A DNA stretch of 64,000 nucleotides from Bacteroidota bacterium (GTDB lineage: Bacteria > Bacteroidota > Bacteroidia > Bacteroidales > JAGNHN01): NCBI GenBank assembly GCA_022710185.1, contig JAKLHK010000012.1:19245-83244 (forward strand), read 5' to 3'. A program made the translations under genes and the position numbers. This document shows, in pieces, positions 2,669 to 59,654 of this stretch. How positions within the stretch are numbered: position 1 is the stretch's first letter; every line of letters starts with the position of its first letter. The notes beneath the pieces are model-generated. The model had not been told where the DNA came from, made no database searches, and saw nothing but the letters and a program-made list of their open reading frames with translations.

Positions 2669-3880
2669 CTATTGGGCCGGTCCCGAAAGGGCGCGGCGGA
2701 TTTCGTTCACAATGTCGTTGGCCACTTCCTCCTTCGACTTCAGGGGGTAGGCCTTTTCCGTTCCATCCCGGCTGATGATGACCACTTTGTTGGTAGGCGT
2801 AGCAAAGCCAGCCCCTTTGTCCCGAAGGGAGTTGAGCACGATGAGGTCGGCATTTTTCTCCTGCAGCTTATGGCGGGCATTCTCCCTCTCCTTGTCGGTC
2901 TCCAACGCAAACCCGACCACCACCTGATCTGTACGTCGAGCCTTTCCAATCCCGGCCAGGATGTCTTCCGTGGCCTTGAGGGTGAGCTGCATCTCGAGGT
3001 TTCCCTGCTTCTTGATCTTGCTCCGGTGCACCGTGGCAGGACTGAAATCTGCGACCGCAGCGGCCATGATGATTACGGTATGCGCTGGGAGCTGGACCAT
3101 GACCTCTTCCTGCATCTGGGCGGCAGTGACTACATCGATGCGGTGTATGCCGGGTCTATGCGTCGACAGGGCCGTAGGACCGGTGATCAGGGTAACCTGG
3201 GCACCCCGCATGGCCAGGTTCTCGGCCAGGGCAAAGCCCATTTTTCCGCTGCTATGATTGCCGAAGTAACGAACCGGATCCAGGGGTTCATGTGTGGGCC
3301 CGGCCGTCACCAGGGCATGAACACCTTCCATGTCCTTTGCGGTCAGGGCCAGCCGAATAACCTCGAGGATCATTTCCGGCTCCTCCATCCTCCCTGCGCC
3401 ACAAAGCCCCGACGCCAGTTCTCCGGTCTGGGGCTCGATGAGGTGATGGCCCATGCGGGTCAGCCGGTGAATGTTCTCCTGGGTGGTGGGGTGACGGTAC
3501 ATGTCAAGGTCCATGGCCGGAGCAAAATACACAGGGCATTTGGCGGAAAGATAGACGGTCATCAGGAAATTGTCCGCGATGCCATGGGCCATTTTGGCCA
3601 GGGTGTTGGCCGAGGCCGGGGCGATCACAAAAAGGTCGGCCCAGCGGCCCAGGTCCACATGGCTGTTCCAGAGGCCGTCCCTGGGGTCGAAGGCCTCAGT
3701 CCAAACCGGCCTTTTCGAAAGCGTGGACAAGGTCAAGGGGGTAACGAAGTCATGGGCGGAAGGTGTCATCACCACCCGCACATTGGCCCCTTCCTTCATC
3801 AGCAGGCGCACCAGCAACGGTACCTTGTAGGCTGCGATGCTGCCGGTCACCCCGATCAGGATGTTCTTGTCCCTCAACAT
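2669..3880 (-). CDS. coaBC: Bifunctional phosphopantothenoylcysteine decarboxylase / phosphopantothenate-cysteine ligase
   Basis: 403 aa with N-terminal flavoprotein motif ILIGVTGSIAAYK and a C-terminal DFP/CoaB domain (..VTAGPTHEPLDPVRYFGNHSSGKMG..). Confidence 0.93.
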   Translation of the reverse strand: MLRDKNILIGVTGSIAAYKVPLLVRLLMKEGANVRVVMTPSAHDFVTPLTLSTLSKRPVWTEAFDPRDGLWNSHVDLGRWADLFVIAPASANTLAKMAHGIADNFLMTVYLSAKCPVYFAPAMDLDMYRHPTTQENIHRLTRMGHHLIEPQTGELASGLCGAGRMEEPEMILEVIRLALTAKDMEGVHALVTAGPTHEPLDPVRYFGNHSSGKMGFALAENLAMRGAQVTLITGPTALSTHRPGIHRIDVVTAAQMQEEVMVQLPAHTVIIMAAAVADFSPATVHRSKIKKQGNLEMQLTLKATEDILAGIGKARRTDQVVVGFALETDKERENARHKLQEKNADLIVLNSLRDKGAGFATPTNKVVIISRDGTEKAYPLKSKEEVANDIVNEIRRALSGPAQ

Positions 3881-6473: not shown

Positions 6474-9400
6474 TCACATCAGTATGCCCGGGATGCGCCA
6501 CCTGCGGCGCAGCAGGAAGAGGGAGATAAGGAAGATGGCCATGGCGGGGCCCAGGGCGAGGTAGATCGGTTGCCAGGGGGAACGGAAGGAAACCGGGGCC
6601 GTGTCGCCGATATTCACGAAACTCGACCAGAAGTAGGGGCTTGCGGCGAGTTCGCCGGCCTGAGTGATATAATCCAGTTTGGCACGCCTGAGGGCCTCGT
6701 CCTTGGGGAGCCCTTCCTTGAGGTAGGCATAGAACGACTCCATGATGGCGGCAGTGGAACGGTCCTCTACCTTCCACAGGCTGATCACGAGGCTGGGGAC
6801 GCCGGAGTACATGAACCCCCGGGCAAGGGTCATGAGCCCCTCCCCTTTCACGTGCTGCCCATAGCCGGTATTGCAGGCGCTGAGCACGGCGAGCTCGGCG
6901 TTCAGCTTCATATTGAAAAGCTCATAAGTGTTGAGGTACCCATCTTCATCTGTGCCCTGTTCGGGGAAGAAGGCCAGGCGACTGTACATGGGCTGGTCGT
7001 TGTTCACCAGGCCGTGGGTGGCGATGTGCAGGATGCGGTAGCCCGAGGCCAGGGCCTTGAAGCGGGATTCTGTGGCTTCCTCCTGCATGAGTATCTTACC
7101 CTTCAATATCTTACCGATGGCGGCTACCTCGTAAAGGGTCTGGGGCAGGTTCATCAGCTCCCCTCCGCGCTCGGCAAAGCGGCTGGCGTTGAGGGCCAGG
7201 GGGGCGTCGGGGTTGAACACGGCAGGTGCGAATGCCAGCAGTTCTCCCCGGGCGTGGCCTTTGGGGCGTTCGAGGGCCTTGATGAGCAAGGCGGCGGAAT
7301 AGCCGTAACTCACGCTGTGGTCGCGCAGCACATAATGTAGGTCGCGGTAATTGATGCGGTCGGTGCGCGAGGCCCGGGAGAGCAGTGACTCGAAAGAAAT
7401 ATATCCCAGCTGCCCGTCCGGGATGATGATGAGCTTGCGGTCTTGTATGAGCGCTTCAAAGGGGTGCAGCAGGATGGCATAGAGGGCATAGGCACTGTTC
7501 ACATAGTCGCGGAACACTTCCCGGGGGGCGCTGACGAGTTGGCCGAGGTCCTGGCGGTTGGGCAGATGGGCGATCAGCGTTTCCAGGGGGGTGGTCAGCA
7601 CCTGGTTCTCGATGCTGACGCCCATTGGGGTCACGCAGAATCCGACCAGGAAGGAGTCGGAGATGTAGTATTCGATCAGGGCCTCATCGGGCTGCAGGCG
7701 GTACTGGATCTCCCGCATGCTGTATATGCGGTTCTCGTACTTGTACTGGTAATATTCGGGGAAGTAGCGTTCGAAGCTGAGGGTAAGCTGGTCCTGTTGC
7801 GTTTGCAGTTGCAGGAGGCGCATCTCCCAGTTCGACATTTTCAGGGAATCGGGCTGGCTGAGCTGGCGTTCTTCGTAGATCAGCTTCTGGAAGGCGGCAA
7901 TGTCGCGGCGCAGGCGGGCTTCTTTGGCCAGGAGGGAGTCGGGGATATCGGCAAACTGACGGGCATCACTTTCCCGGATCTGTTGGTACAGCAGGCTGGC
8001 CTTGGAGCGTTCGGCGATATTGAAGGCCCTTTCGGCATAGGCCATGCTGCCGGTGGCCTTGTATAGTTCAAGGGAGTAGGCCACGGCCTTCTCGTAAATC
8101 TTCTGATGGGAGGCCGTGATCTCCATTTTGCTGGAGTTACTCAGCTGCAGGGTCTTGGTCTTGTCGATCAGGTCGATGAGGTAGGCATAATGTTTCTGTA
8201 CCTCCTGCAGGTGCTGCAGGCTGCGGTCGTACTTCAGGCGTTCTTCAAGGGCCCTGGATTTCTTCTGTACGATGCGGAAGAGTTCGATGGTTTGGAAGGA
8301 GTTGAGGCTGTTACTGCTAGATAACAGTGCGCTTGGCTGTTCTTTGTTTAATAGGATGCCTATGGCGTCATTATAAAATCTCAATGCTTTTTTTATATTC
8401 GAATAGGCATAAACATCAGCAAGATACTCATAACACCAAGCTGTATTATGACTTCTTGGGCCATAATTTCGTAAAGAATAGTCCAACGCGTGAGTAACAT
8501 AAAATTCCGCATCCTTTCTCTTGCCAATCGAATTCAGAAATTCACTGTACAGAAGATATGTATTGTTAAAATTATCCCGATTAGTTACCCGATTATTAAT
8601 GCTTAACTTTATAATTTCTTTGAAATATTTGTCAGCAGATGCATTATTTCCAGCGGCTGCATGAGCCATAGCAAGATTTTTTGTAATATCATTTTGAGAG
8701 TTAATGTTATTATCAGCAATAGTAGAATTTGCTAGATTGAAACTACTGATTGCTTCGTTGTATTGGTTGAATGAATAATATATATTTCCTTCTTCAAGCA
8801 AAACTTTTACCATCTCATTGCTAAGAATCGACTTATTTAGCAAAACAATCCTTTTGGCATTCTTTGTGTATTGTAGCGCTTTATCTTTGTCCCTAATATT
8901 CTTGTATATTCTTGACTTTGCCAAGTTTAAGGAAACTAGTGTTCTTGGACTGTTAATGTTTGGGTACAATGATTCATAGTGATTTAGCACCTTCAATCCT
9001 TCATCATATCGTCCTAGAATAATATACAGGCTTGACAAATTTGTTGCAGACAAAATAATTTTATCATCATCTTCTATACCAATCTTTGTCTTTATTTCAA
9101 GTGCTCTTAAATAATTTTGCAATGCTAGATCATAGTTTCCAAGCTTACGCTCAATTACCCCTATGTTATTGTGAATTGAGGCTAAAAGATAAGACTCCTT
9201 TGCACCAAAATAAATATTATGCAGAGATAAACTCTTAAATACAGACTCTTTAGCCTGATCAACAGAACCAAGAAGATATTCATTAGCAAAATTCAATGAA
9301 TAAAATAGGATAAGCAGCGAATCATAATTAGCATCAACCCTATTTTCAATGATTTTGCAGTACATGCTGCTTATTTCCTTTGACTCACTATATTTTCCCG

Positions 9401-9872
9401 TATTATATAAAACCTTGGCCGTAAAATAATTATACCATAACTTAGCATAAAAATCATTAGGTGAGTCATCTAATACCCTATTAGCGACATGCGAAATTGA
9501 CTCAAACTCAGTGACACCATCAATTTGGACCAGTGAAACCAAAGCCTTAAACAATTCCACGTTATACGGGTATCCCTGCTGTTTATATGCTGTTGCAAGA
9601 GCATAGTATTGAACAACAAGGCTATCTTGAAGAGCCCTCTCTTCGAAATAGGCAACCCTAGCATATATTGACTTAGAGGTTTGCTTAACTTTTTGTATAT
9701 TTACCCCATTGGAAATAAGCAGTCTGCCAACTGCGTCATAACTTGATGACCTCTCAAGTTGTGCGTAAGTAGCTTCTGCACATATTGATCCTACGCCAAA
9801 CAGGAACACTAGGATAACCTGGATACTGAGGCTTGGGATAATATAGCTTGTATGTCTGCCTGTCCTCTTCAA
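6474..9872 (-). CDS. TPR-repeat / CHAT-domain (caspase-like) protease with N-terminal signal or anchor and C-terminal transmembrane anchor
   Basis: 1132-aa uninterrupted ORF with a TTG start. The N-terminus is MKRTGRHTSYIIPSLSIQVILVFLFGVGSICAEA. About 500 aa of Asn/Lys/Tyr-rich TPR-like repeats follow. The C-terminal CHAT region has the His..Cys dyad contexts ILHIATHG and AVLSACNTG. The last 35 aa are a TM helix plus RRRWR. The 5' 1.5 kb is strikingly AT-rich. Confidence 0.85.
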   Translation of the reverse strand: MKRTGRHTSYIIPSLSIQVILVFLFGVGSICAEATYAQLERSSSYDAVGRLLISNGVNIQKVKQTSKSIYARVAYFEERALQDSLVVQYYALATAYKQQGYPYNVELFKALVSLVQIDGVTEFESISHVANRVLDDSPNDFYAKLWYNYFTAKVLYNTGKYSESKEISSMYCKIIENRVDANYDSLLILFYSLNFANEYLLGSVDQAKESVFKSLSLHNIYFGAKESYLLASIHNNIGVIERKLGNYDLALQNYLRALEIKTKIGIEDDDKIILSATNLSSLYIILGRYDEGLKVLNHYESLYPNINSPRTLVSLNLAKSRIYKNIRDKDKALQYTKNAKRIVLLNKSILSNEMVKVLLEEGNIYYSFNQYNEAISSFNLANSTIADNNINSQNDITKNLAMAHAAAGNNASADKYFKEIIKLSINNRVTNRDNFNNTYLLYSEFLNSIGKRKDAEFYVTHALDYSLRNYGPRSHNTAWCYEYLADVYAYSNIKKALRFYNDAIGILLNKEQPSALLSSSNSLNSFQTIELFRIVQKKSRALEERLKYDRSLQHLQEVQKHYAYLIDLIDKTKTLQLSNSSKMEITASHQKIYEKAVAYSLELYKATGSMAYAERAFNIAERSKASLLYQQIRESDARQFADIPDSLLAKEARLRRDIAAFQKLIYEERQLSQPDSLKMSNWEMRLLQLQTQQDQLTLSFERYFPEYYQYKYENRIYSMREIQYRLQPDEALIEYYISDSFLVGFCVTPMGVSIENQVLTTPLETLIAHLPNRQDLGQLVSAPREVFRDYVNSAYALYAILLHPFEALIQDRKLIIIPDGQLGYISFESLLSRASRTDRINYRDLHYVLRDHSVSYGYSAALLIKALERPKGHARGELLAFAPAVFNPDAPLALNASRFAERGGELMNLPQTLYEVAAIGKILKGKILMQEEATESRFKALASGYRILHIATHGLVNNDQPMYSRLAFFPEQGTDEDGYLNTYELFNMKLNAELAVLSACNTGYGQHVKGEGLMTLARGFMYSGVPSLVISLWKVEDRSTAAIMESFYAYLKEGLPKDEALRRAKLDYITQAGELAASPYFWSSFVNIGDTAPVSFRSPWQPIYLALGPAMAIFLISLFLLRRRWRIPGILM

Positions 9873-9928
9873 AACTTATGGAATGGGTAAATATACAAAA
9901 CTTGTGTCATTTTCTAAAATATACGATC

Positions 9929-10195
9929 ATGAGCATCAAAACGGAAGAAAATAATTCAACAATTTTTCAAACAACTCAGAACATGGAACTTATGAACACA
10001 ATTGAAATGCTCTCAGTTCGAGGAGGGCGGCTTTCTTACGGTCCGAGAAAACTCTCAGAGGCTGATATTGAAGTGCCAGACCTTACCTATTCTGGACCAA
10101 AGACGACTTCTGAAAGCGATTTGGAGCAACCAGATCTTACTCAATCCCTCTCGAGGCGTCGTAAATCCTGCCTTCCTACCATATTCTGCTGGTAG
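9929..10195 (+). CDS. Double-glycine-leader peptide precursor 1 (88 aa, two GP..PDLT modules plus a basic/Cys tail)
   Basis: This is the in-frame sub-ORF of track ORF 9848..10195. Leader: MSIKTEENNSTIFQTTQNMELMNTIEMLSVRGG. Core: RLSYGPRKLSEADIEVPDLT YSGPKTTSESDLEQPDLT QSLSRRRKSCLPTIFCW. The leader is paralogous to peptide 2 (NSxIF, EM(L/I)S(V/I)(R/K)GG). The start at 9929 avoids overlap with the CHAT gene start. Confidence 0.6.
   Translation: MSIKTEENNSTIFQTTQNMELMNTIEMLSVRGGRLSYGPRKLSEADIEVPDLTYSGPKTTSESDLEQPDLTQSLSRRRKSCLPTIFCW
10034..10141 (+). repeat. Tandem 54-nt (18-codon) coding repeat inside peptide 1
   Basis: SYGPRKLSEADIEVPDLT (10034-10087) against YSGPKTTSESDLEQPDLT (10088-10141). 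The amino-acid motif is conserved with different synonymous codons. Confidence 0.65.
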
Positions 10196-10216
10196 AAAGA
10201 GGCCTTTCTTTTCTTA
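10194..10216 (+). terminator. Weak AT-rich hairpin plus T-tract after peptide 1
   Basis: AGAAAG(10194-10199)/CTTTCT(10204-10209) with loop AGGC, then TTTCTT. A second 6-bp hairpin GTTCCC/GGGAAC lies at 10229-10244. Confidence 0.3.
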
Positions 10217-10283
10217 CTTAACGACATAGTTCCCTAACGGGAACAAAATCAGTTGATTCAGAAATCTTAAAACAACAATAGTC

Positions 10284-10418
10284 ATGGAAAATTCCAACAT
10301 CTTTAGTAATGTTACTGTTTTGTCATTCGAAGAAATGATCTCAATTAAAGGTGGAAATGCTGGTCCTGGCGAAAAAGCTGGAGACAGTACATCAATTGAC
10401 CAGCCTGATCTGACCTAG
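10284..10418 (+). CDS. Double-glycine-leader peptide precursor 2 (44 aa, one GP..PDLT module ending at the stop codon)
   Basis: Not in the ORF track (under 60 aa). Manual translation gives MENSNIFSNVTVLSFEEMISIKGG | NAGPGEKAGDSTSIDQPDLT*. LSxEEMxxIKGG is a textbook bacteriocin-type GG leader. Confidence 0.6.
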   Translation: MENSNIFSNVTVLSFEEMISIKGGNAGPGEKAGDSTSIDQPDLT

Positions 10419-10447
10419 TCGGATAGTCTTCGTCCGCACTTTCTTTT

Positions 10448-10455
10448 TAGCTTTG
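10448..10455 (+). promoter_or_regulatory. Bacteroidota-type -7 promoter motif TAgcTTTG upstream of the alpha-oxoamine synthase gene
   Basis: Exact match to the TAnnTTTG consensus, 30 nt before the first possible start codon. Confidence 0.4.
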
Positions 10456-10485
10456 CACCCAATTCACTGAGGTGTTAAGCTAAAC

Positions 10486-11751
10486 TTGTGTATCGTGGAC
10501 ATTTTCAACAAGGTCGTTAACAATATGGGTCCGCTCGGACGGCACTCCGTCATGGCCCATGGGTATTTCACCTTCCCCAAGCTCGAGGGGGAGATCAGCA
10601 ACCGCATGATGTTCCGGGGTAAGGAACGCCTGGTGTGGAGCCTCAACAACTACGCCGGGTTGGGCAACCACCCGGAGGTGCGTAAGGCCGATGCCGATGC
10701 AGCAGCCGAATGGGGCCTCGCCTACCCCATGGGCGCCCGCATGATGTCTGGTCAGACAAAATACCACGAACAACTGGAGCGTGAACTGGCCGCCTTCGAA
10801 AGCAAAGAGGACGCCTTCCTGCTCAACTACGGGTACCAGGGCATGGTATCCATCATCGATGCCATGGTGGATCGCAAGGACGTGATCGTTTACGACTCTG
10901 AAGCCCATGCCTGCATCATCGACGGGGTGCGGCTGCACATGGGCAAGCGCTACGTCTATCCACACAATAATATACAGAACTTCGAGAAAGAACTGCAACG
11001 CGCCCAGCGGCTTACCGAAGAGACGGGCGGGGGCATCCTGGTAATCACCGAAGGGGTTTACGGCATGTCGGGCGACCTGGGCAAGCTGCGGGAGATCGTG
11101 GCCCTGAAAAAGAAATACGCCTTCCGCCTTTTGGTCGACGACGCCCACGGCTTCGGCATTATGGGAGCCACCGGGGCCGGTACCGGGGAACACCTGGGGG
11201 TGCAGGATGAGATCGACCTCTACTTCGGCACGTTCGCCAAAGCCATGGCTGGCATCGGTGCCTTCGTGGCCGGCCCTGCCGACGTAATGCAGTACCTCAG
11301 GTACAATATGCGCTCCCAGACCTTCGCCAAGTCGCTCCCCATGCCCATGGTCATCGGCTCCCTGAAACGACTGGAAATGCTGCGCACCATGCCAGAGCTG
11401 CGGCAACAGTGCTGGACCATCGTAGACGCCCTGCAAAATGGCCTCAAGGCCGCCGGTTTCGACCTGGGCAATACCGAATCCCCGGTAACCCCGGTGATGC
11501 TCAAGGGTGGACTGGGTGAAGCCACCCACCTGACCTTCGATCTCCGGGAGAAGTTCAACATCTTCTGCTCCATCGTCACCTATCCGGTGGTACCCAAGGA
11601 CGTCATCCTCATCCGTCTCATCCCCACCGCCATGCACACACTGGAGGACGTGGATTATACCATCAAGGCCTTTGTGGATGTCAAGGGTAAACTGGACTCC
11701 GGGGAATATGCCCGGCGCGAGATGATGGATGCTGCTGCCTTTATGCAGTAG
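10486..11751 (+). CDS. PLP-dependent alpha-oxoamine synthase family acyltransferase (BioF/KBL/serine-palmitoyltransferase-like)
   Basis: 421 aa (TTG start, or ATG at 10525). Family motifs ..NNYAGLGNHPEV.., ..DDAHGFG.., ..GTFAKAMAGIGAF.. (PLP Lys context). No bio or tdh genes are adjacent, so substrate specificity is unresolved. Confidence 0.85.
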   Translation: MCIVDIFNKVVNNMGPLGRHSVMAHGYFTFPKLEGEISNRMMFRGKERLVWSLNNYAGLGNHPEVRKADADAAAEWGLAYPMGARMMSGQTKYHEQLERELAAFESKEDAFLLNYGYQGMVSIIDAMVDRKDVIVYDSEAHACIIDGVRLHMGKRYVYPHNNIQNFEKELQRAQRLTEETGGGILVITEGVYGMSGDLGKLREIVALKKKYAFRLLVDDAHGFGIMGATGAGTGEHLGVQDEIDLYFGTFAKAMAGIGAFVAGPADVMQYLRYNMRSQTFAKSLPMPMVIGSLKRLEMLRTMPELRQQCWTIVDALQNGLKAAGFDLGNTESPVTPVMLKGGLGEATHLTFDLREKFNIFCSIVTYPVVPKDVILIRLIPTAMHTLEDVDYTIKAFVDVKGKLDSGEYARREMMDAAAFMQ

Positions 11752-28661: not shown

Positions 28662-28692
28662 TCCACATTAATTAACCTTATTCTACTCCAGC

Positions 28693-29940
28693 ATGGCAAT
28701 ACTCAGAATGTTCAGGGGCTGGCGCCCACCGGCCCATCTGGCCGCCCAGGTGGCCTCCAGGCCCTATGATGTACTCAACTCCGACGAAGCACGGCAGGAA
28801 GCCGAAGGTAACCCCTACTCCCTGCTGCATATCATCAAGCCCGAGATCGACATGGACCCCGCTATTGATGTGCACGATGCATCGGTATACCAAAAAGCGG
28901 CCGAGAACTTTGGATTCTTCAAGCACCAGGGATGGCTGCAGCAGGATCCGGAAGCCTATCTCTACATCTATGCCCAGACGATGTTCGGAAAGACCCAGTA
29001 CGGCATCGTGGGCTGCGCCTCGGTTGACGACTATCTCGACGGCATCATCCGCAAGCATGAGCTCACCCGTCCTGACAAGGAAGAAGACCGCATGAAGCAT
29101 GTACGCATCAACAATGCCAACATGGAGCCGGTGTTCTTCAGCTACCCCGCAGTGCCCGAGATCGATGCCATCGTTCTGGATATCACCCGCAGGCAGAAAC
29201 CTGAATACGATTTTGTGGCCGATGACGGTGTGGGCCACCATTTCTGGGTGATCAGGGACCAGGCAGTGAATGCCCGCATCATTGAACTGTTCTCGGCCAT
29301 ACCCTTCACCTATGTGGCCGACGGCCACCACCGCACTGCCGCGGCCGCCCTGGTTGGCAAAGAGAAACGCGAGCAACATCCAGACTATACCGGTGAAGAA
29401 GAATTCAATTTCTTCCTTGCCGTGCACTTCCCCGACGATCAGCTCACCATCATCGACTACAACCGGGTAGTTACCGACCTCAACGGCATGGATGCCCCTG
29501 CTTTCCTGCAGCGCCTGCAGGAGGGCTTTGTGGTGGAGGACAAGGGAACGGAGATATACAAGCCCTGCTGCCTGCACAACTTCTCCCTCTACCTTGAGGG
29601 TCGTTGGTACAGTCTTAGCGCCCGACCAGGAACCTTCGATGACGCAGACCCGATCGGGGTGCTGGATGTGACCATCCTTAGTCAGCAGGTTTTCGATAAG
29701 TTGCTGGAACTGGGCAACCTGCGTACCTCCAAACGGATTGACTTCGTGGGCGGTATCCGTGGCCTCGGGGAGCTGAAAAAGCGCGTGGACAGCGGGGAGA
29801 TGAAAGCAGCCTTCGCACTGTATCCCGTATCCATGAACCAACTCATCGACATCGCTGACACCGGCAACATCATGCCTCCCAAGACCACCTGGTTCGAACC
29901 CAAGCTGCGTTCGGGACTGGTGGTCCACGAGCTGATATAA
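28693..29940 (+). CDS. DUF1015 domain-containing protein
   Basis: 415 aa: FRGWRPPAHLAAQVASRPYDVLNSDEAR..VADGHHRTAAA... The family is commonly linked to serA/serC in Bacteroidota. Confidence 0.85.
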   Translation: MAILRMFRGWRPPAHLAAQVASRPYDVLNSDEARQEAEGNPYSLLHIIKPEIDMDPAIDVHDASVYQKAAENFGFFKHQGWLQQDPEAYLYIYAQTMFGKTQYGIVGCASVDDYLDGIIRKHELTRPDKEEDRMKHVRINNANMEPVFFSYPAVPEIDAIVLDITRRQKPEYDFVADDGVGHHFWVIRDQAVNARIIELFSAIPFTYVADGHHRTAAAALVGKEKREQHPDYTGEEEFNFFLAVHFPDDQLTIIDYNRVVTDLNGMDAPAFLQRLQEGFVVEDKGTEIYKPCCLHNFSLYLEGRWYSLSARPGTFDDADPIGVLDVTILSQQVFDKLLELGNLRTSKRIDFVGGIRGLGELKKRVDSGEMKAAFALYPVSMNQLIDIADTGNIMPPKTTWFEPKLRSGLVVHELI

Positions 29941-29962
29941 TCTTCCCAGGCGTGTACCATTC

Positions 29963-29992
29963 AAGGCTCCTGAAGGAACAGGGGCCTTTTTT
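29963..29992 (+). terminator. Intrinsic terminator after the DUF1015 gene
   Basis: 8-bp stem AAGGCTCC/GGGGCCTT (one G-U pair) with a 10-nt loop, then TTTTTT. Confidence 0.6.
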
Positions 29993-30106
29993 ATGTCGGT
30001 GATGTCCCTCTCATGAATCTCTGCCACGGCCAGCCAGGGGCTATTCCACATTTTTCACATCCTCAGGTTCAGCATTAGCATGTATTGAAATATGTAGGGT
30101 CTTTGT

Positions 30107-51126: not shown

Positions 51127-52563
51127 ATGGATAAGGATTTTATTGGAGTGTGGGATCGGTGTCTGCATATCATAAAGGACAACATCAGCCACCAGAAGTT
51201 CAAGACCTGGTTCGAGCCCATCAAACCAATCAAGATCGAGGATCATGTACTTACGATTCAGGTTCCCAGCCAGTTTTTCTATGAATGGCTTGAGGAGCAC
51301 TATATCAATTTGCTGAAGAAGACCATCCGCCAGGAACTCGGGGCCGACGGCCGCCTGGAGTATAGTATTGTAATGGACAGCGCCTTCGCCGGAGAAGACC
51401 CGCTGACCATCAACCTGCCCACGTCCAACAAGCGCTCCGTAAAAAACGATCCCGTTTCCATGCCCCTTGACCTGAACAAGGGTAACTCCAAAGAAATCCC
51501 GAACCCCTTCATCATCCCAGGCCTCAAAAAACTCAAGATCCACTCCCAGCTCAACGACAGCTATTCCTTCGAGAACTTTGTGGAAGGCGACTGCAACCGA
51601 CTGGCCCGGTCGGCAGGATATGCCGTGGCCAACAACCCGGGCAAGACCGCCTTCAACCCCCTGTTCATCTATAGCAATACCGGACTGGGTAAAACCCACC
51701 TGGCGCATGCCATCGGTCTGCAGGTCAAGGAGAACTTCCCCGACAAGACCGTGCTCTACCTGGCCGCCGAACAGTTTATCCAGCAGTTCGTGGAGTCGGT
51801 GCGTAACAACACCCAGAACGACTTCGTCCATTTTTATCAGATGATCGACGTGCTGATCATCGATGATATCCAGTTCCTGGCCAGTAAGGAAAAGACCCAG
51901 AATGTCTTCTTCCATATCTTCAACCATTTGCACCAGAACGGCAAACAACTGGTCATCACTTCCGACAAGGCGCCTGTGGAGCTCAAGGGGATGGAGACCC
52001 GCCTGCTCTCCCGCTTCAAATGGGGATTGGCCGCCGACCTGCAGGTGCCCGATATCGAGACCCGGATCGCCATCCTGGAGAAGAAGCTATACAATGACGG
52101 CATTACCATGCCGAAGGATGTGGTGGAATACCTCGCCTACTGCATCACAACCAATATCCGCGAACTGGAAGGCGCGCTCATCTCCATCATGGCGCAGTCG
52201 TCGCTCAATAAGAAGGAGATCACGCTCGACCTGGCCAAGCAGATGATCGACAAGTTCGTGAAGAACACCTCGCGCGAGATATCCATCGACTATATTCAGA
52301 AGGTGGTGTGCGATTACTTCAGCCTGCCGATCGACCAGATGAACTCCAAGACCCGCAAGCGGGAGATCGTACAGGCCCGCCAACTGGCCATGTATTTCTC
52401 AAAGAAGCACACCAAAGCCTCCCTGGCGACCATAGGGCTGCACTGCGGCAACAAGGACCACGCTACCGTGCTCCATGCCTGCCGTACAGTGAACAACCTT
52501 ATCGAAACCGACAAGCAGTTCAGGATCTACGTGGAAGAGCTCGAAAAGAAGATCAAGATCTGA
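51127..52563 (+). CDS. dnaA: Chromosomal replication initiator protein DnaA
   Basis: 478 aa with Walker A SNTGLGKTHL, an AAA+ core, and the C-terminal DNA-binding domain ..REIVQARQLAMYFSKK..IGLHCGNKDHATVLHA.. Confidence 0.95.
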   Translation: MDKDFIGVWDRCLHIIKDNISHQKFKTWFEPIKPIKIEDHVLTIQVPSQFFYEWLEEHYINLLKKTIRQELGADGRLEYSIVMDSAFAGEDPLTINLPTSNKRSVKNDPVSMPLDLNKGNSKEIPNPFIIPGLKKLKIHSQLNDSYSFENFVEGDCNRLARSAGYAVANNPGKTAFNPLFIYSNTGLGKTHLAHAIGLQVKENFPDKTVLYLAAEQFIQQFVESVRNNTQNDFVHFYQMIDVLIIDDIQFLASKEKTQNVFFHIFNHLHQNGKQLVITSDKAPVELKGMETRLLSRFKWGLAADLQVPDIETRIAILEKKLYNDGITMPKDVVEYLAYCITTNIRELEGALISIMAQSSLNKKEITLDLAKQMIDKFVKNTSREISIDYIQKVVCDYFSLPIDQMNSKTRKREIVQARQLAMYFSKKHTKASLATIGLHCGNKDHATVLHACRTVNNLIETDKQFRIYVEELEKKIKI

Positions 52564-57581: not shown

Positions 57582-59654
57582 CTAATATGACCCCAACCAA
57601 CGCCGGATGAACCATTCAAGGGTCAGCAGGGCCAGCAGGGCAAAGAACACCCATTTAAGGTGGATAAGCTCCGCATAGGTCTTCTTTTCATACACCACGG
57701 TCCGGATATTCTCCTTCTGACGGATCCACTCCGCAACCTCGGCCATCTCCTGCCGGGCAAACACCTCTCCCCCGCTCAATCCGGCCAGTCGATACAGGCT
57801 GGAATGATCGGCGCGGGTGTTGATCATTTCGGCCACCACGGGTGTAACCGTGAATTTTCCACTGCGCTGGAAGGCCTCCTCTCCCAGCTGCACCGATGCA
57901 TTATAGGAATAAGGTCCGGGAGGCAGTACCCCGGCATCCAGGGTATAGGCCATGCCCTTGCGGGTGAACGCAAAGGGGAAGGACTTGCCCCCGGCATCGG
58001 TGATTACCATGCGGGCATCTGGTTCGTTGACCAGCTCAAAGGCTTCGTTGTATAGTTCTGCTCCGATGTTCACCGCGATATTTTCAGGGTACTCATATTC
58101 GGCCATTACGCGGAAGCGGCTCCGGTCAGCACGGACCGAGAGGTACTGTACCATCTTGTTCACCATCAGGTCGAAGGTGACATGGCTGCCCCTGAGCAGG
58201 TATTCCTGCATCCTCCATCGCCATATTCCTTCCCCCAGCACCACCCCACTTTTTCGCTGCTGGTCCTGACTGAAGACTACCAGGGGATAATCGGTACTTA
58301 CGGAACCCAGCTTCTGGTTGAACAGGGGAAAGGCTGAGCGGGTGAGATTGATGTCGGCGAAGGGCACACGCAGGGGGGGCCACTCACGCGTCAGGTCCCT
58401 GAGGTTGTGCGGAATCGTAAAAAGGCCGAAACGTTCCTGGGCCAGGGGCTGTGCCTCGTTCCAACCATTACGGATGGCGTTGAACTCCACCCCGGCATCC
58501 AGGGCATTGAACAGCCGCAGATCCGTGCTCTGGCTCAGCAGGAAAAGTGTAGGGAAAGCCTCACGGCTGACCTGGTCGAGCAGCTCACGGCCCGGGTACT
58601 TCACCGAAGGCAAGCCATGCAGCATCAGGAGGTTGAATCCATCAAGATCATCAACCTCTGCAGGGGCCATGCGGACCTCTACTTCATAGTTCTGGTTCCC
58701 TTCTATGGCTTGCCGAAGGGCCGAAAGGTCCGGATGGGGTGCCGCGGCATAGATCAGGACTTTCTGGCGTGCGTCCAGCACCTCGATGTAGGCAGTCTGG
58801 ACATTGTTCTGACGGTTTTCTTCACCGGGCCGGGGCACCAGGCTGAAGTTCAGCGTGGTTATACCAGGCTTATCTGCCGGAAAAACGAGCTGGAGTGTAG
58901 TGCTGAAGTCAGGGGTCGGAACACGAACCGGCACCTGCCGTATGCCACGCCCATCCTGCAGCACCTGCAGCATCAAAGTTTCTCCGGCATAACCGCTGGC
59001 CTGCACCACCACTTCCATCGGGAACTCATTGCCCAGGTAGGTGATCCGGTTATAGAAAAGGCGGCTGATTCGCACATCCTTCTGGGCTGAGGTGTCACCC
59101 AGGGCCACCCCCACCACCGGCCACTGCCCGGCCCCCGGATCATGGGCCGGATTGCGCCCGCGGTTGAAGAGCCCATCAGTGGCCAGTACGACCGCCCCCA
59201 GGTTGCGGTTGGTGAAGCGGGTGCGAATCTCCTCCATCAATTGGGAGGCATCGGTATACTTTTCGGAAAAATCGGCCTGCAGGCCCGGATTCACCTGGTC
59301 CCCGAACAGCAGAGGACGGACATCATAGTCGTCGGCCAGCTCCTGGGCCAGGGATTCCCACGCTGCGGTCAGTGCCGAACTGTCTTCGCCCTGGATCACC
59401 GACAGGGAATTGTCCATGGCCATCACGATCAGGGGCTTCTCCTTGCTGGTGCGAAGCATGCGCACCAGGGGGGCCAGCAGAAGGAAGGCTATGAAAGTGA
59501 CGGCAGTAAAACGGGCGAGGGCCAGTAACCATCGGGTGAGCGGCAGAAATGAATCTGTGCGGTCCCGGTAATACAACAAGGCAGCATACAGTGCCCCTGC
59601 AGCTACGCAAAGTACTGCATGCCACCAGGGATGGTCTGTGAGTATGCTTAGCAC
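57582..59654 (-). CDS. Large membrane protein with N-terminal double-TM region and C-terminal TM (vWA/GATase1-like middle; function unknown)
   Basis: 690-aa ORF: N-terminal HPWWHAVLCVAAGALYAALLYY.. and ..FTAVTFIAFLLLAPLV, C-terminal ..WVFFALLALLTLEWFIRR. Confidence 0.6.
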   Translation of the reverse strand: MLSILTDHPWWHAVLCVAAGALYAALLYYRDRTDSFLPLTRWLLALARFTAVTFIAFLLLAPLVRMLRTSKEKPLIVMAMDNSLSVIQGEDSSALTAAWESLAQELADDYDVRPLLFGDQVNPGLQADFSEKYTDASQLMEEIRTRFTNRNLGAVVLATDGLFNRGRNPAHDPGAGQWPVVGVALGDTSAQKDVRISRLFYNRITYLGNEFPMEVVVQASGYAGETLMLQVLQDGRGIRQVPVRVPTPDFSTTLQLVFPADKPGITTLNFSLVPRPGEENRQNNVQTAYIEVLDARQKVLIYAAAPHPDLSALRQAIEGNQNYEVEVRMAPAEVDDLDGFNLLMLHGLPSVKYPGRELLDQVSREAFPTLFLLSQSTDLRLFNALDAGVEFNAIRNGWNEAQPLAQERFGLFTIPHNLRDLTREWPPLRVPFADINLTRSAFPLFNQKLGSVSTDYPLVVFSQDQQRKSGVVLGEGIWRWRMQEYLLRGSHVTFDLMVNKMVQYLSVRADRSRFRVMAEYEYPENIAVNIGAELYNEAFELVNEPDARMVITDAGGKSFPFAFTRKGMAYTLDAGVLPPGPYSYNASVQLGEEAFQRSGKFTVTPVVAEMINTRADHSSLYRLAGLSGGEVFARQEMAEVAEWIRQKENIRTVVYEKKTYAELIHLKWVFFALLALLTLEWFIRRWLGSY

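Follow-up and report, generated by a model that had tools for sequence, protein, structure and literature searches.

Why does the gene of a protease predicted to face the periplasm lie head-to-head with two small genes for double-glycine leader peptides, and could the products of the two sides act on each other? This question is raised by a locus within a 64,000-nucleotide stretch of a Bacteroidales genome (GenBank contig JAKLHK010000012.1; the whole stretch is hereafter called the window), in which the gene of a protease combining tetratricopeptide repeats (TPRs) with a CHAT domain diverges from two peptide genes, here named pep1 and pep2. We read the locus, as the best explanation, as a module of three genes that one Bacteroidales lineage has conserved, and as a stripped-down member of a wider, undescribed gene neighbourhood of Bacteroidota. 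With a probability that we put at about 0.45, and judging from sequence comparisons, the exported peptides would be cognate ligands or substrates of the protease. An initial annotation of the same DNA had already proposed a membrane-tethered protease gated by exported peptides; taken as a whole, that interpretation is partly supported.

Two small genes under purifying selection

The pep1 gene (positions 9929-10195, plus strand) encodes 88 amino acids (aa) and pep2 (10284-10418, plus strand) encodes 44 aa. The pep1 leader (9929-10027) ends in LSVRGG and the pep2 leader (10284-10355) in ISIKGG, and both agree with the rule for double-glycine leaders, namely 15-35 residues, a GG end, an acidic position -8 and hydrophobic positions -7 and -4, as can be followed in LSFEEMISIKGG and TIEMLSVRGG. 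Behind its leader, pep1 carries two GP..(D/E)..PDLT modules and then a basic tail with an aromatic or hydrophobic end; the pep2 core has 20 residues, is acidic (NAGPGEKAGDSTSIDQPDLT) and runs up to the stop codon. Three modules are thus present, DIEVPDLT and DLEQPDLT in pep1 and SIDQPDLT in pep2, the last directly before the stop codon, which agrees with the earlier statement that the modules have acidic ..PDLT ends, once at a true C-terminus. Cysteine is absent from pep2 and from both PDLT modules of pep1, and the cores are rich in proline and glycine. Public gene callers had called the same open reading frame (ORF) as pep1 (identical protein P0112), and the pep2 product (P0116) is a hypothetical protein in an NCBI Bacteroidales metagenome-assembled genome.

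Both peptides are kept in five lineages (the window, L083, L085, L088 and L089), beside the same housekeeping genes, and the protease gene is visible in four of the five, the L089 contig being too short. L083, a syntenic orthologue of about 50% GC that came from a scan of metagenome contigs, has the order M14 peptidase, aminotransferase, pep2, pep1, protease, photolyase, BamD and RpoZ. Because nonsynonymous change lies well below synonymous change in sister lineages, pep1 and pep2 are real genes under purifying selection: between L083 and L085, the proportions of nonsynonymous (pN) and synonymous (pS) differences are 0.087 and 0.38 for pep1, and 0.16 and 0.71 for pep2. The clade consensus of the pep1 core reads RR..GPG.V.E.D(I/L/V)E.PDL(T/N), then ..GPGGV.E.D(V/L)E.PDL(T/N), then the tail. 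That of pep2 reads N(A/T/S)GP, a variable acidic stretch and PD(L/I/V)(T/N/A), with the stop codon directly after it in three of the five lineages. The pair P-D is invariant in every module.

Searched with a peptide profile, 5.8 billion proteins yielded six clusters only, all of the window clade. An exhaustive profile search through 1.84 billion representative proteins brought in further, distant members, e.g., P0243 (..RIKGG RFRAGPGDTVADDIDMPDLTCAPGPGDTVDDDIDMPDLT..) and P0245, which belong to a wider tandem 'GPG..DIDMPDLT' family and carry two near-identical GPGD.V.DDIDMPDLT units; several of them are hypothetical proteins of Bacteroidales metagenome-assembled genomes. The tandem-module members comprise P0238, P0239, P0241, P0243-P0245, P0247 and P0249 (NCBI HOW24963.1, MCK4676671.1 and MBE0652615.1 are examples). 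The net charge of the core is -3 in pep2, 0 in pep1 and -1 to -6 in the relatives, so that all peptide cores are acidic or neutral (0 to -6), unlike those of cationic bacteriocins. Looked at for complementarity, the charges of the peptides and of the protease's TPR block gave no clear signal.

Between the protease start codon (9872) and the pep1 ATG (9929), which stand on divergent strands, there is a gap of 56 nucleotides (nt), in agreement with the start-to-start distance of 57 nt given before. A perfect 16-nt inverted repeat, to which no strand is assigned, straddles the protease start: one arm, GGGTAAATATACAAAA (9885-9900), is intergenic and ends 12 nt upstream of the protease start codon, and the other, TTTTGTATATTTACCC (9691-9706), lies in protease codons ~56-61 (GVNIQK). 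Both arms are conserved at matching positions in L083, L085 and L088, and GVNIQK is the best conserved stretch of an otherwise divergent protease N-terminus. The repeat may represent facing promoters or a shared operator. In addition, a hairpin, GTTCCC-TAAC-GGGAAC (10229-10244, plus strand), separates pep1 from pep2; its structure, and not its sequence, is kept through compensatory changes in L083, L085 and L089 (e.g., CTGCCC-GAAA-GGGCAG), and it could act as an attenuator, or determine the pep1:pep2 ratio through processing or stability.

A TPR-CHAT protease predicted to face the periplasm

The protease gene (6474-9872, minus strand, as are all its parts below) is an ORF of 1132 aa with a TTG start. 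Pfam places a CHAT domain (PF12770) at aa 793-1090 (6603-7496), scoring 215.4 bits (cut-off 24; E 1.5e-63), and a TPR_12 match of 78 bits at aa 230-303. The catalytic residues are intact, as had been stated from the sequence contexts: HIATHG holds His949 and His953 (codon 953 at 7014-7016) and LSACNTG holds Cys1000 (6873-6875), so that the His953/Cys1000 dyad is complete, and the three residues are invariant in an alignment of 11 homologues and at least 90% conserved in one of 62. An AlphaFold2 model built from those 62 homologues (mean pLDDT 80.5) shows an ill-defined N-terminal stretch, helical repeats at about aa 125-720, an alpha/beta CHAT domain and a terminal membrane helix. Its best Foldseek matches are Csx29 of craspase (top structures 8eey_B and 8d9f_A), separase and DdvA, with E ~1e-12 and a TM-score of up to 0.62 on the target, and according to the model the protease is a TPR-CHAT protein of the separase/craspase/DdvA fold. 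A search of PDB with its sequence matched TPR repeats and nothing else.

Regarding topology, a 19-residue hydropathy scan found two hydrophobic segments only, at aa 7-37 and at aa 1101-1123, the latter followed by RRRWR, which confirms the basic N-terminus with a hydrophobic segment and the C-terminal helix described earlier. Codons 1-38 (9759-9872) form the signal-peptide region, with a basic N-terminus, a hydrophobic core and the end ..ATYA|Q, as hydropathy and the orthologues indicate; this end we take to be a Bacteroidetes 'Q-rule' signal-peptidase I site, presumably cleaved before the Q. No anti-sigma model matched the protease N-terminus, where the 38-aa signal peptide stands instead. 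At the other end, hydropathy marks a transmembrane anchor at aa ~1104-1122 (6507-6563), after which come the 11 residues RRRWRIPGILM.

The same features recur in the family. A scan of one genome per species gave at least 596 relatives, the best 80 of which were taken for locus analysis; these are 26-38% identical to the window protein and nearly all from Bacteroidota. Among the 78 long enough to be scored, 65 have an N-terminal hydrophobic segment and 60 have a C-terminal hydrophobic helix with a K/R tail, and A|Q signal-peptide ends are common. Since the family conserves both the signal peptide at one end and, at the other, an anchor followed by basic residues, the TPR array and the CHAT domain are predicted to lie in the periplasm, tethered to the inner membrane by the C-terminal helix, and the topology of the window protease would be the standard one of a large family. 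The earlier placement of the protein body outside the cytoplasm is consequently backed by sequence rules, by family conservation and by the precedent of DdvA, a Myxococcus protein characterized in 2024 by cryo-EM as a periplasmic TPR-CHAT, with an unknown signal, and proposed to cut itself (PMC11506125).

Pairing of peptide and protease in other lineages

A strict double-glycine leader pattern was run over 680 kb of flanks of the 80 distant homologues. It gave six matches, of which two only are convincing leader peptides, at the loci L005 and L063, each ~150 nt upstream of the CHAT frame; such upstream windows make up ~1.9% of the flanks, and the chance of both peptides falling there is ~3.5e-4. 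A loose pattern, [LIVMFT]..[LIVMFAT].GG, showed no enrichment near the protease as compared to farther away, its matches being mostly noise. A further case is the locus of P0002, the best protein match outside the window clade (L097/L098), which has a divergent peptide, ..LNADEMQLIRGG|GDVTKPTSRPRVIFDETEQ, 146 nt upstream of the protease, with a weak match to a lantibiotic leader model (E 0.0018).

The L005 type is a large group, with at least 305 orthologous proteins at E<1e-60, Prolixibacteraceae included. Five further members were sampled, and upstream DNA was readable in four; together with L005 itself, a double-glycine gene of 42-46 aa diverges from the protease in five of five loci (L005, L100, L102, L103 and L104). 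The leader, MKTLFANNETKNFDSFSFDVLTAEELSLVKGG, is almost invariant, and the cores of ~10 aa are variable (KVQDAYCDLN, KSADSYADLN, KSIDAYAGLD, KSVDVYIDLL and AAKEDDAYADPTKP). Core ends of the form ..DL(T/N) are common to the window clade (PDLT, PDLN) and the L005 type (CDLN, ADLN), and the double-glycine leader pattern is retained in all pep orthologues as well as in the L005, L063 and L097 peptides.

Altogether, a double-glycine gene adjoins the protease in four separate lineages, head-to-head in three and upstream on the same strand in L063. The proposed functional link of peptide and protease is strengthened by this pairing, found in five window-clade lineages and in the L005 type, L097 and L063. 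The pairing is no general trait of the protease family, being present in only two of the 80 sampled loci.

Sigma, putative anti-sigma and exporter genes around related proteases

Genes near the related proteases hint at an output. In L063, a single cluster comprises genes for HlyD, for a C39-ABC exporter, for the peptide and the protease, for a putative anti-sigma protein and for a sigma factor of the extracytoplasmic function (ECF) type; the exporter, with the domains Peptidase_C39, ABC_membrane and ABC_tran, stands with HlyD immediately before the peptide gene. In the L005 type, a gene for a protein of ~507 aa follows 3' of the peptide gene on the same strand, and its product has a single membrane pass, weak anti-sigma motifs at the N-terminus and a periplasmic TPR domain; shortly beyond the protease, on the opposite strand and convergent with it, stands an ECF sigma gene. 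In L097 and L063, a homologous membrane protein is encoded directly after the ECF sigma gene and overlaps it, the classic sigma/anti-sigma arrangement. An ECF sigma gene is present in L005, L063, L097, L100 and L102-L104. Moreover, when Pfam was run on the nearest two genes to either side of the protease at the 80 loci, the specific neighbour that came up most often was Sigma70_r2, in 7 genes upstream and 8 downstream, i.e., at most ~15 of the 80 loci. Compared with these clusters, the window locus is a minimal version, made of two peptides and the protease.

Some further observations were made at these loci. L104 (1-3344) has, upstream of the protease, a tandem copy of the pair formed by the 42-aa double-glycine peptide and a 510-aa putative anti-sigma protein, the peptide copies being identical. 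Beyond the sigma gene, L005, L097, L100 and L102-L104 share two conserved genes, for proteins of ~245 aa (an N-terminal transmembrane segment, no family match) and 612 aa (a weak BamA-like stretch), which might be part of the same system. The motif AAAAGGTAACCC is common to the peptide-protease intergenic regions of the L005 type (L005, L100 and L102-L104) and of L097, and differs from the window-clade motif; a promoter motif shared by the window-clade and L005-type intergenic regions was not found.

How the module could work, and competing explanations

If the peptides are ligands or substrates of the protease, the following sequence of events can be proposed. pep1 and pep2 would be exported by a C39-peptidase ABC transporter encoded elsewhere in the genome and cut after GG, and the protease, as sequence rules and family conservation suggest, would enter the periplasm via Sec, lose its signal peptide and stay tethered by the C-terminal helix. 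The fast-evolving TPR array would then bind the acidic ..PD(L/I)(T/N) modules, and its occupancy would control the protease, which probably also cuts beside internal modules such as those of pep1. In related loci, the likely output is that the single-pass, putative anti-sigma protein is cleaved and the ECF sigma factor set free. In favour of this reading speak the ..DL(T/N) ends common to the window clade and the L005 type, cores that are never basic, leaders that stay constant where cores change, and the dedicated partners of known TPR-CHAT proteases. Extended to a full pathway, this would be a Bacteroidota pheromone system in which an unmodified peptide, exported by a C39 transporter, is sensed in the periplasm by a hypervariable TPR-CHAT protein that, once activated by the signal, acts on an ECF anti-sigma factor as its site-1 protease. 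The window locus would be a reduced form, whose two-module peptides might bridge two protease molecules; we regard this extension as possible and rather doubtful.

Several observations weigh against a ligand or substrate role. Neither pep1 nor pep2 matched a curated leader or peptide hidden Markov model (Pfam at E<=0.01, NCBIfam at E<=1), and an adjacent double-glycine peptide was not found in 78 of the 80 sampled family loci, which makes the pairing a subfamily trait. By tblastn and Pfam, the 64-kb window holds no exporter, ECF sigma or anti-sigma gene. Moreover, if export leads outwards, peptides of 2-6 kDa would have to cross the outer membrane again to reach a periplasmic receptor. Comparing L083 with L085, pep1 is 91% identical and the TPR block 64%, so there is no simple co-variation, and adjacency alone is weak evidence in a clade that keeps the entire region in synteny.

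This synteny also favours a reading in which the peptides are independent exported products, bacteriocin-like or other, whose arrangement beside the protease has merely been preserved. It would explain why neither an exporter nor an immunity gene is nearby and why most family members have no such peptides, and the L063 peptide, standing between the exporter genes and the protease, could belong to the exporter cluster only. Nevertheless, a peptide adjoins the protease in four separate lineages with different surroundings, the conserved 16-nt inverted repeat straddles the protease start with one arm in the gap before pep1, and the acidic or neutral cores mostly lack the hydrophobic stretches typical of bacteriocins. 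Traits of class II bacteriocins are also wanting here, as the core is not cationic and no small membrane immunity ORF was seen among the window ORFs. On balance, we consider mere neighbourhood unlikely.

Equally unlikely, in our view, is that the protease serves peptide maturation only, cutting pep1 at each ..PDLT to free units like pep2, with no gating or signalling. The build of the peptides suits it: pep1 consists of two modules and a tail, pep2 is one module ending in ..PDLT or ..PDLN in three of the five lineages, and the distant members repeat near-identical units. The invariant P-D of every module and the membership of CHAT enzymes in protease clan CD point the same way. However, craspase cuts after Leu or Met and separase after Arg, and we know of no CHAT protease that cuts after Asp or Thr; the L005-type core, with ~10 residues, needs no further cutting, and the sigma and putative anti-sigma genes beside the L005-type protease point to a regulatory output.

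The peptides could also be inhibitors, pseudosubstrates that silence the protease until they are depleted or displaced. Separase is held inactive in this manner by securin, which lies along its TPR region and active site, and repeated modules could fill such a site. An inhibitor of a periplasmic enzyme would be brought there more simply by Sec, however, whereas a double-glycine leader implies a dedicated exporter, and a core of 10 aa, as in the L005 type, would hardly be long enough to wrap the enzyme as securin does; we thus judge inhibition improbable, more so than the two readings before it. Finally, that the peptides are associated with the TPR region solely through a recent foreign insertion or an assembly chimera can be practically dismissed on the evidence given next, and a ligand or substrate role is the reading that we prefer.

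A clade-wide low-GC block in the TPR region

The N-terminal/TPR block of the protease (~aa 39-511, 8340-9758), delimited by third-codon-position GC content (GC3), a change point, identity to L083 and the AlphaFold2 model (which has helical repeats at aa 125-520 of it), is fast-evolving and belongs to a low-GC block that is unique within the 64 kb. Maximum likelihood sets the change points at ~8340 and ~10525, with a GC of 0.36 inside and 0.56 outside, and GC3 steps within the protease gene, near codon 511, from ~0.3 (codons 1-510) to ~0.8. A step this sharp within a single ORF is what an insertion or a chimera would produce. Nevertheless, two other assemblies (SPAdes and MEGAHIT) agree at 99.99% over both borders of the block, and because independent assemblies made with different assemblers match across the borders, the GC mosaic is real and no assembly artefact.

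The block is also not confined to the window. In L083 (host GC3 ~0.55), GC3 is low at protease codons ~120-480 (L083 6200-7300), and the signal-peptide region and pep1 are host-like; in L088 (host GC3 0.74), the protease N-terminus (L088 1-501) has a GC3 of 0.33 and pep2 is also low, at 0.35. A low-GC TPR block is thus present in four of the four lineages open to inspection (the window, L083, L085 and L088), in hosts of differing GC and with differing borders. A chimera and a recent transfer were both rejected, as the three assemblies are concordant and the block occurs in all four lineages. The earlier argument that peptides and TPR half share one foreign cassette, and so arrived together, does not hold either, given that the block is clade-wide, its borders differ and pep1 of L083 is host-like.

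A search for a donor of the low-GC half gave generic TPR matches only, the best in L063 at 31%, and an Rfam scan of the block returned nothing relevant. Between the window and L083, identity is ~30% in the TPR half, ~70% in the CHAT half, 54% in the photolyase and 86% in the aminotransferase. Between L083 and L085, pS is saturated in the TPR block (0.76-0.86), as compared to 0.29-0.38 in pep1 and in protease codons 1-100, and the protease/peptide locus has a mosaic history. With synonymous sites saturated between lineages, a single old transfer would have been erased, and the GC3 of 0.3 is not the relic of one; either it is actively maintained, or the block has been repeatedly replaced from a low-GC allele pool. 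A hypervariable sensor region of this kind fits a specificity determinant, which is not proof of one.

Comparison with known systems

The initial annotation had held that no characterized system has such an architecture. This stands in part: DdvA is a partial precedent, and no peptide genes have been reported with it (PMC11506125). Like DdvA, the window protein has a TPR-CHAT body, predicted here to be periplasmic, a one-helix tether and a His-Cys dyad; DdvA is a top Foldseek match and is proposed to be a signal-activated site-1 protease in an ECF pathway, and related Bacteroidota loci have ECF sigma and putative anti-sigma genes by the protease. On the other hand, DdvA has an N-terminal anchor and a fused cytoplasmic zinc anti-sigma domain, whereas in the window protein a cleavable signal peptide is combined with an anchor at the C-terminus and the 11-residue tail; the window locus is without sigma or anti-sigma genes nearby, and sequence identity is ~10-12%. 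ECF54 genes have been reported with CHAT neighbours. Our literature search turned up no paper in which CHAT proteins are connected to double-glycine peptides or to the periplasm of Bacteroidetes.

Craspase offers the same fold, a dedicated protease with a next-door partner (Csx29 cleaves Csx30, the product of the adjacent gene) and an ECF-like sigma output through Csx30, but it is cytoplasmic, is activated by RNA-guided Cas7-11 and has a substrate of several hundred residues. When the locus was examined as a defence system, PADLOC gave a generic TPR match only (E 0.001), and no CRISPR or Cas7-11 genes are nearby. Separase and securin likewise combine a TPR/helical scaffold and a CHAT-type caspase domain with a peptide-like pseudosubstrate regulator, but they are eukaryotic, cytoplasmic or nuclear, much larger and without a membrane tether.

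From the side of the peptides, a comparison can be made with the pheromone circuits ComC/ComAB/ComDE and BlpC/BlpAB/BlpHR of Gram-positive bacteria. In these, too, a C39-ABC transporter exports a peptide that bears a double-glycine leader and no modification, sensing takes place outside the cytoplasm, and the leader is conserved where sensor and core are variable. Their sensor is a histidine kinase, whereas the candidate here is a caspase-like protease, the host is a diderm and the relatives suggest an ECF sigma output. Bacteroidetocins, which are class IIa bacteriocin-like toxins, are also from Bacteroidota and have a leader ending in GG (PMC6671954), but the window cores are acidic or neutral and Pro/Gly-rich, with no adjoining immunity or exporter genes. 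The protein does not qualify as an RRNPP receptor, its TPR array being placed behind a signal peptide and fused to a protease. Overall, the locus can be described as a variation on the theme of a TPR-CHAT protease with a dedicated partner, with a credible chance of new peptide signalling.

Other features of the window

Downstream of pep2, a conserved TAGCTTTG at 10445-10456, present in the orthologues too, lies upstream of the aminotransferase gene and fits the Bacteroidetes -7 consensus TAnnTTTG; the ATG near 10525 is a more likely start of the aminotransferase than the TTG at 10486. The two independent ENA contigs (L001 and L002) break off at exactly the same place, window position 3248 inside coaBC, which suggests that the break there is strain-variable or repeat-related. 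The dnaA gene occupies 51127-52563 and the cumulative GC skew turns at ~50-51 kb, so the replication origin is probably inside the window. Two long ORFs on the minus strand, at 57582-59654 (690 aa) and 28678-30051 (457 aa), remained without a Pfam family at E<=1e-5, and the former adjoins a TonB-dependent receptor gene.

Implications

Periplasmic TPR-CHAT proteins are plentiful in Bacteroidota, as the 596 or more matches in one genome per species indicate, and there are often several per genome; no partner is known for any of them, and the signal of DdvA is likewise unknown. The clade-wide low-GC TPR block raises the question of how a local composition so far from that of the host (GC3 0.55-0.8) is maintained or re-imported. 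A linked, exported and easily synthesised peptide represents a direct handle on the ligands or substrates of these caspase-like proteases. Should the extended pheromone pathway be real, this would be the first peptide-based cell-cell signalling in Bacteroidota and the first known ligand class for a periplasmic TPR-CHAT protein, and a confirmed link to ECF sigma factors would provide a peptide-signalling route in a phylum without an established one.

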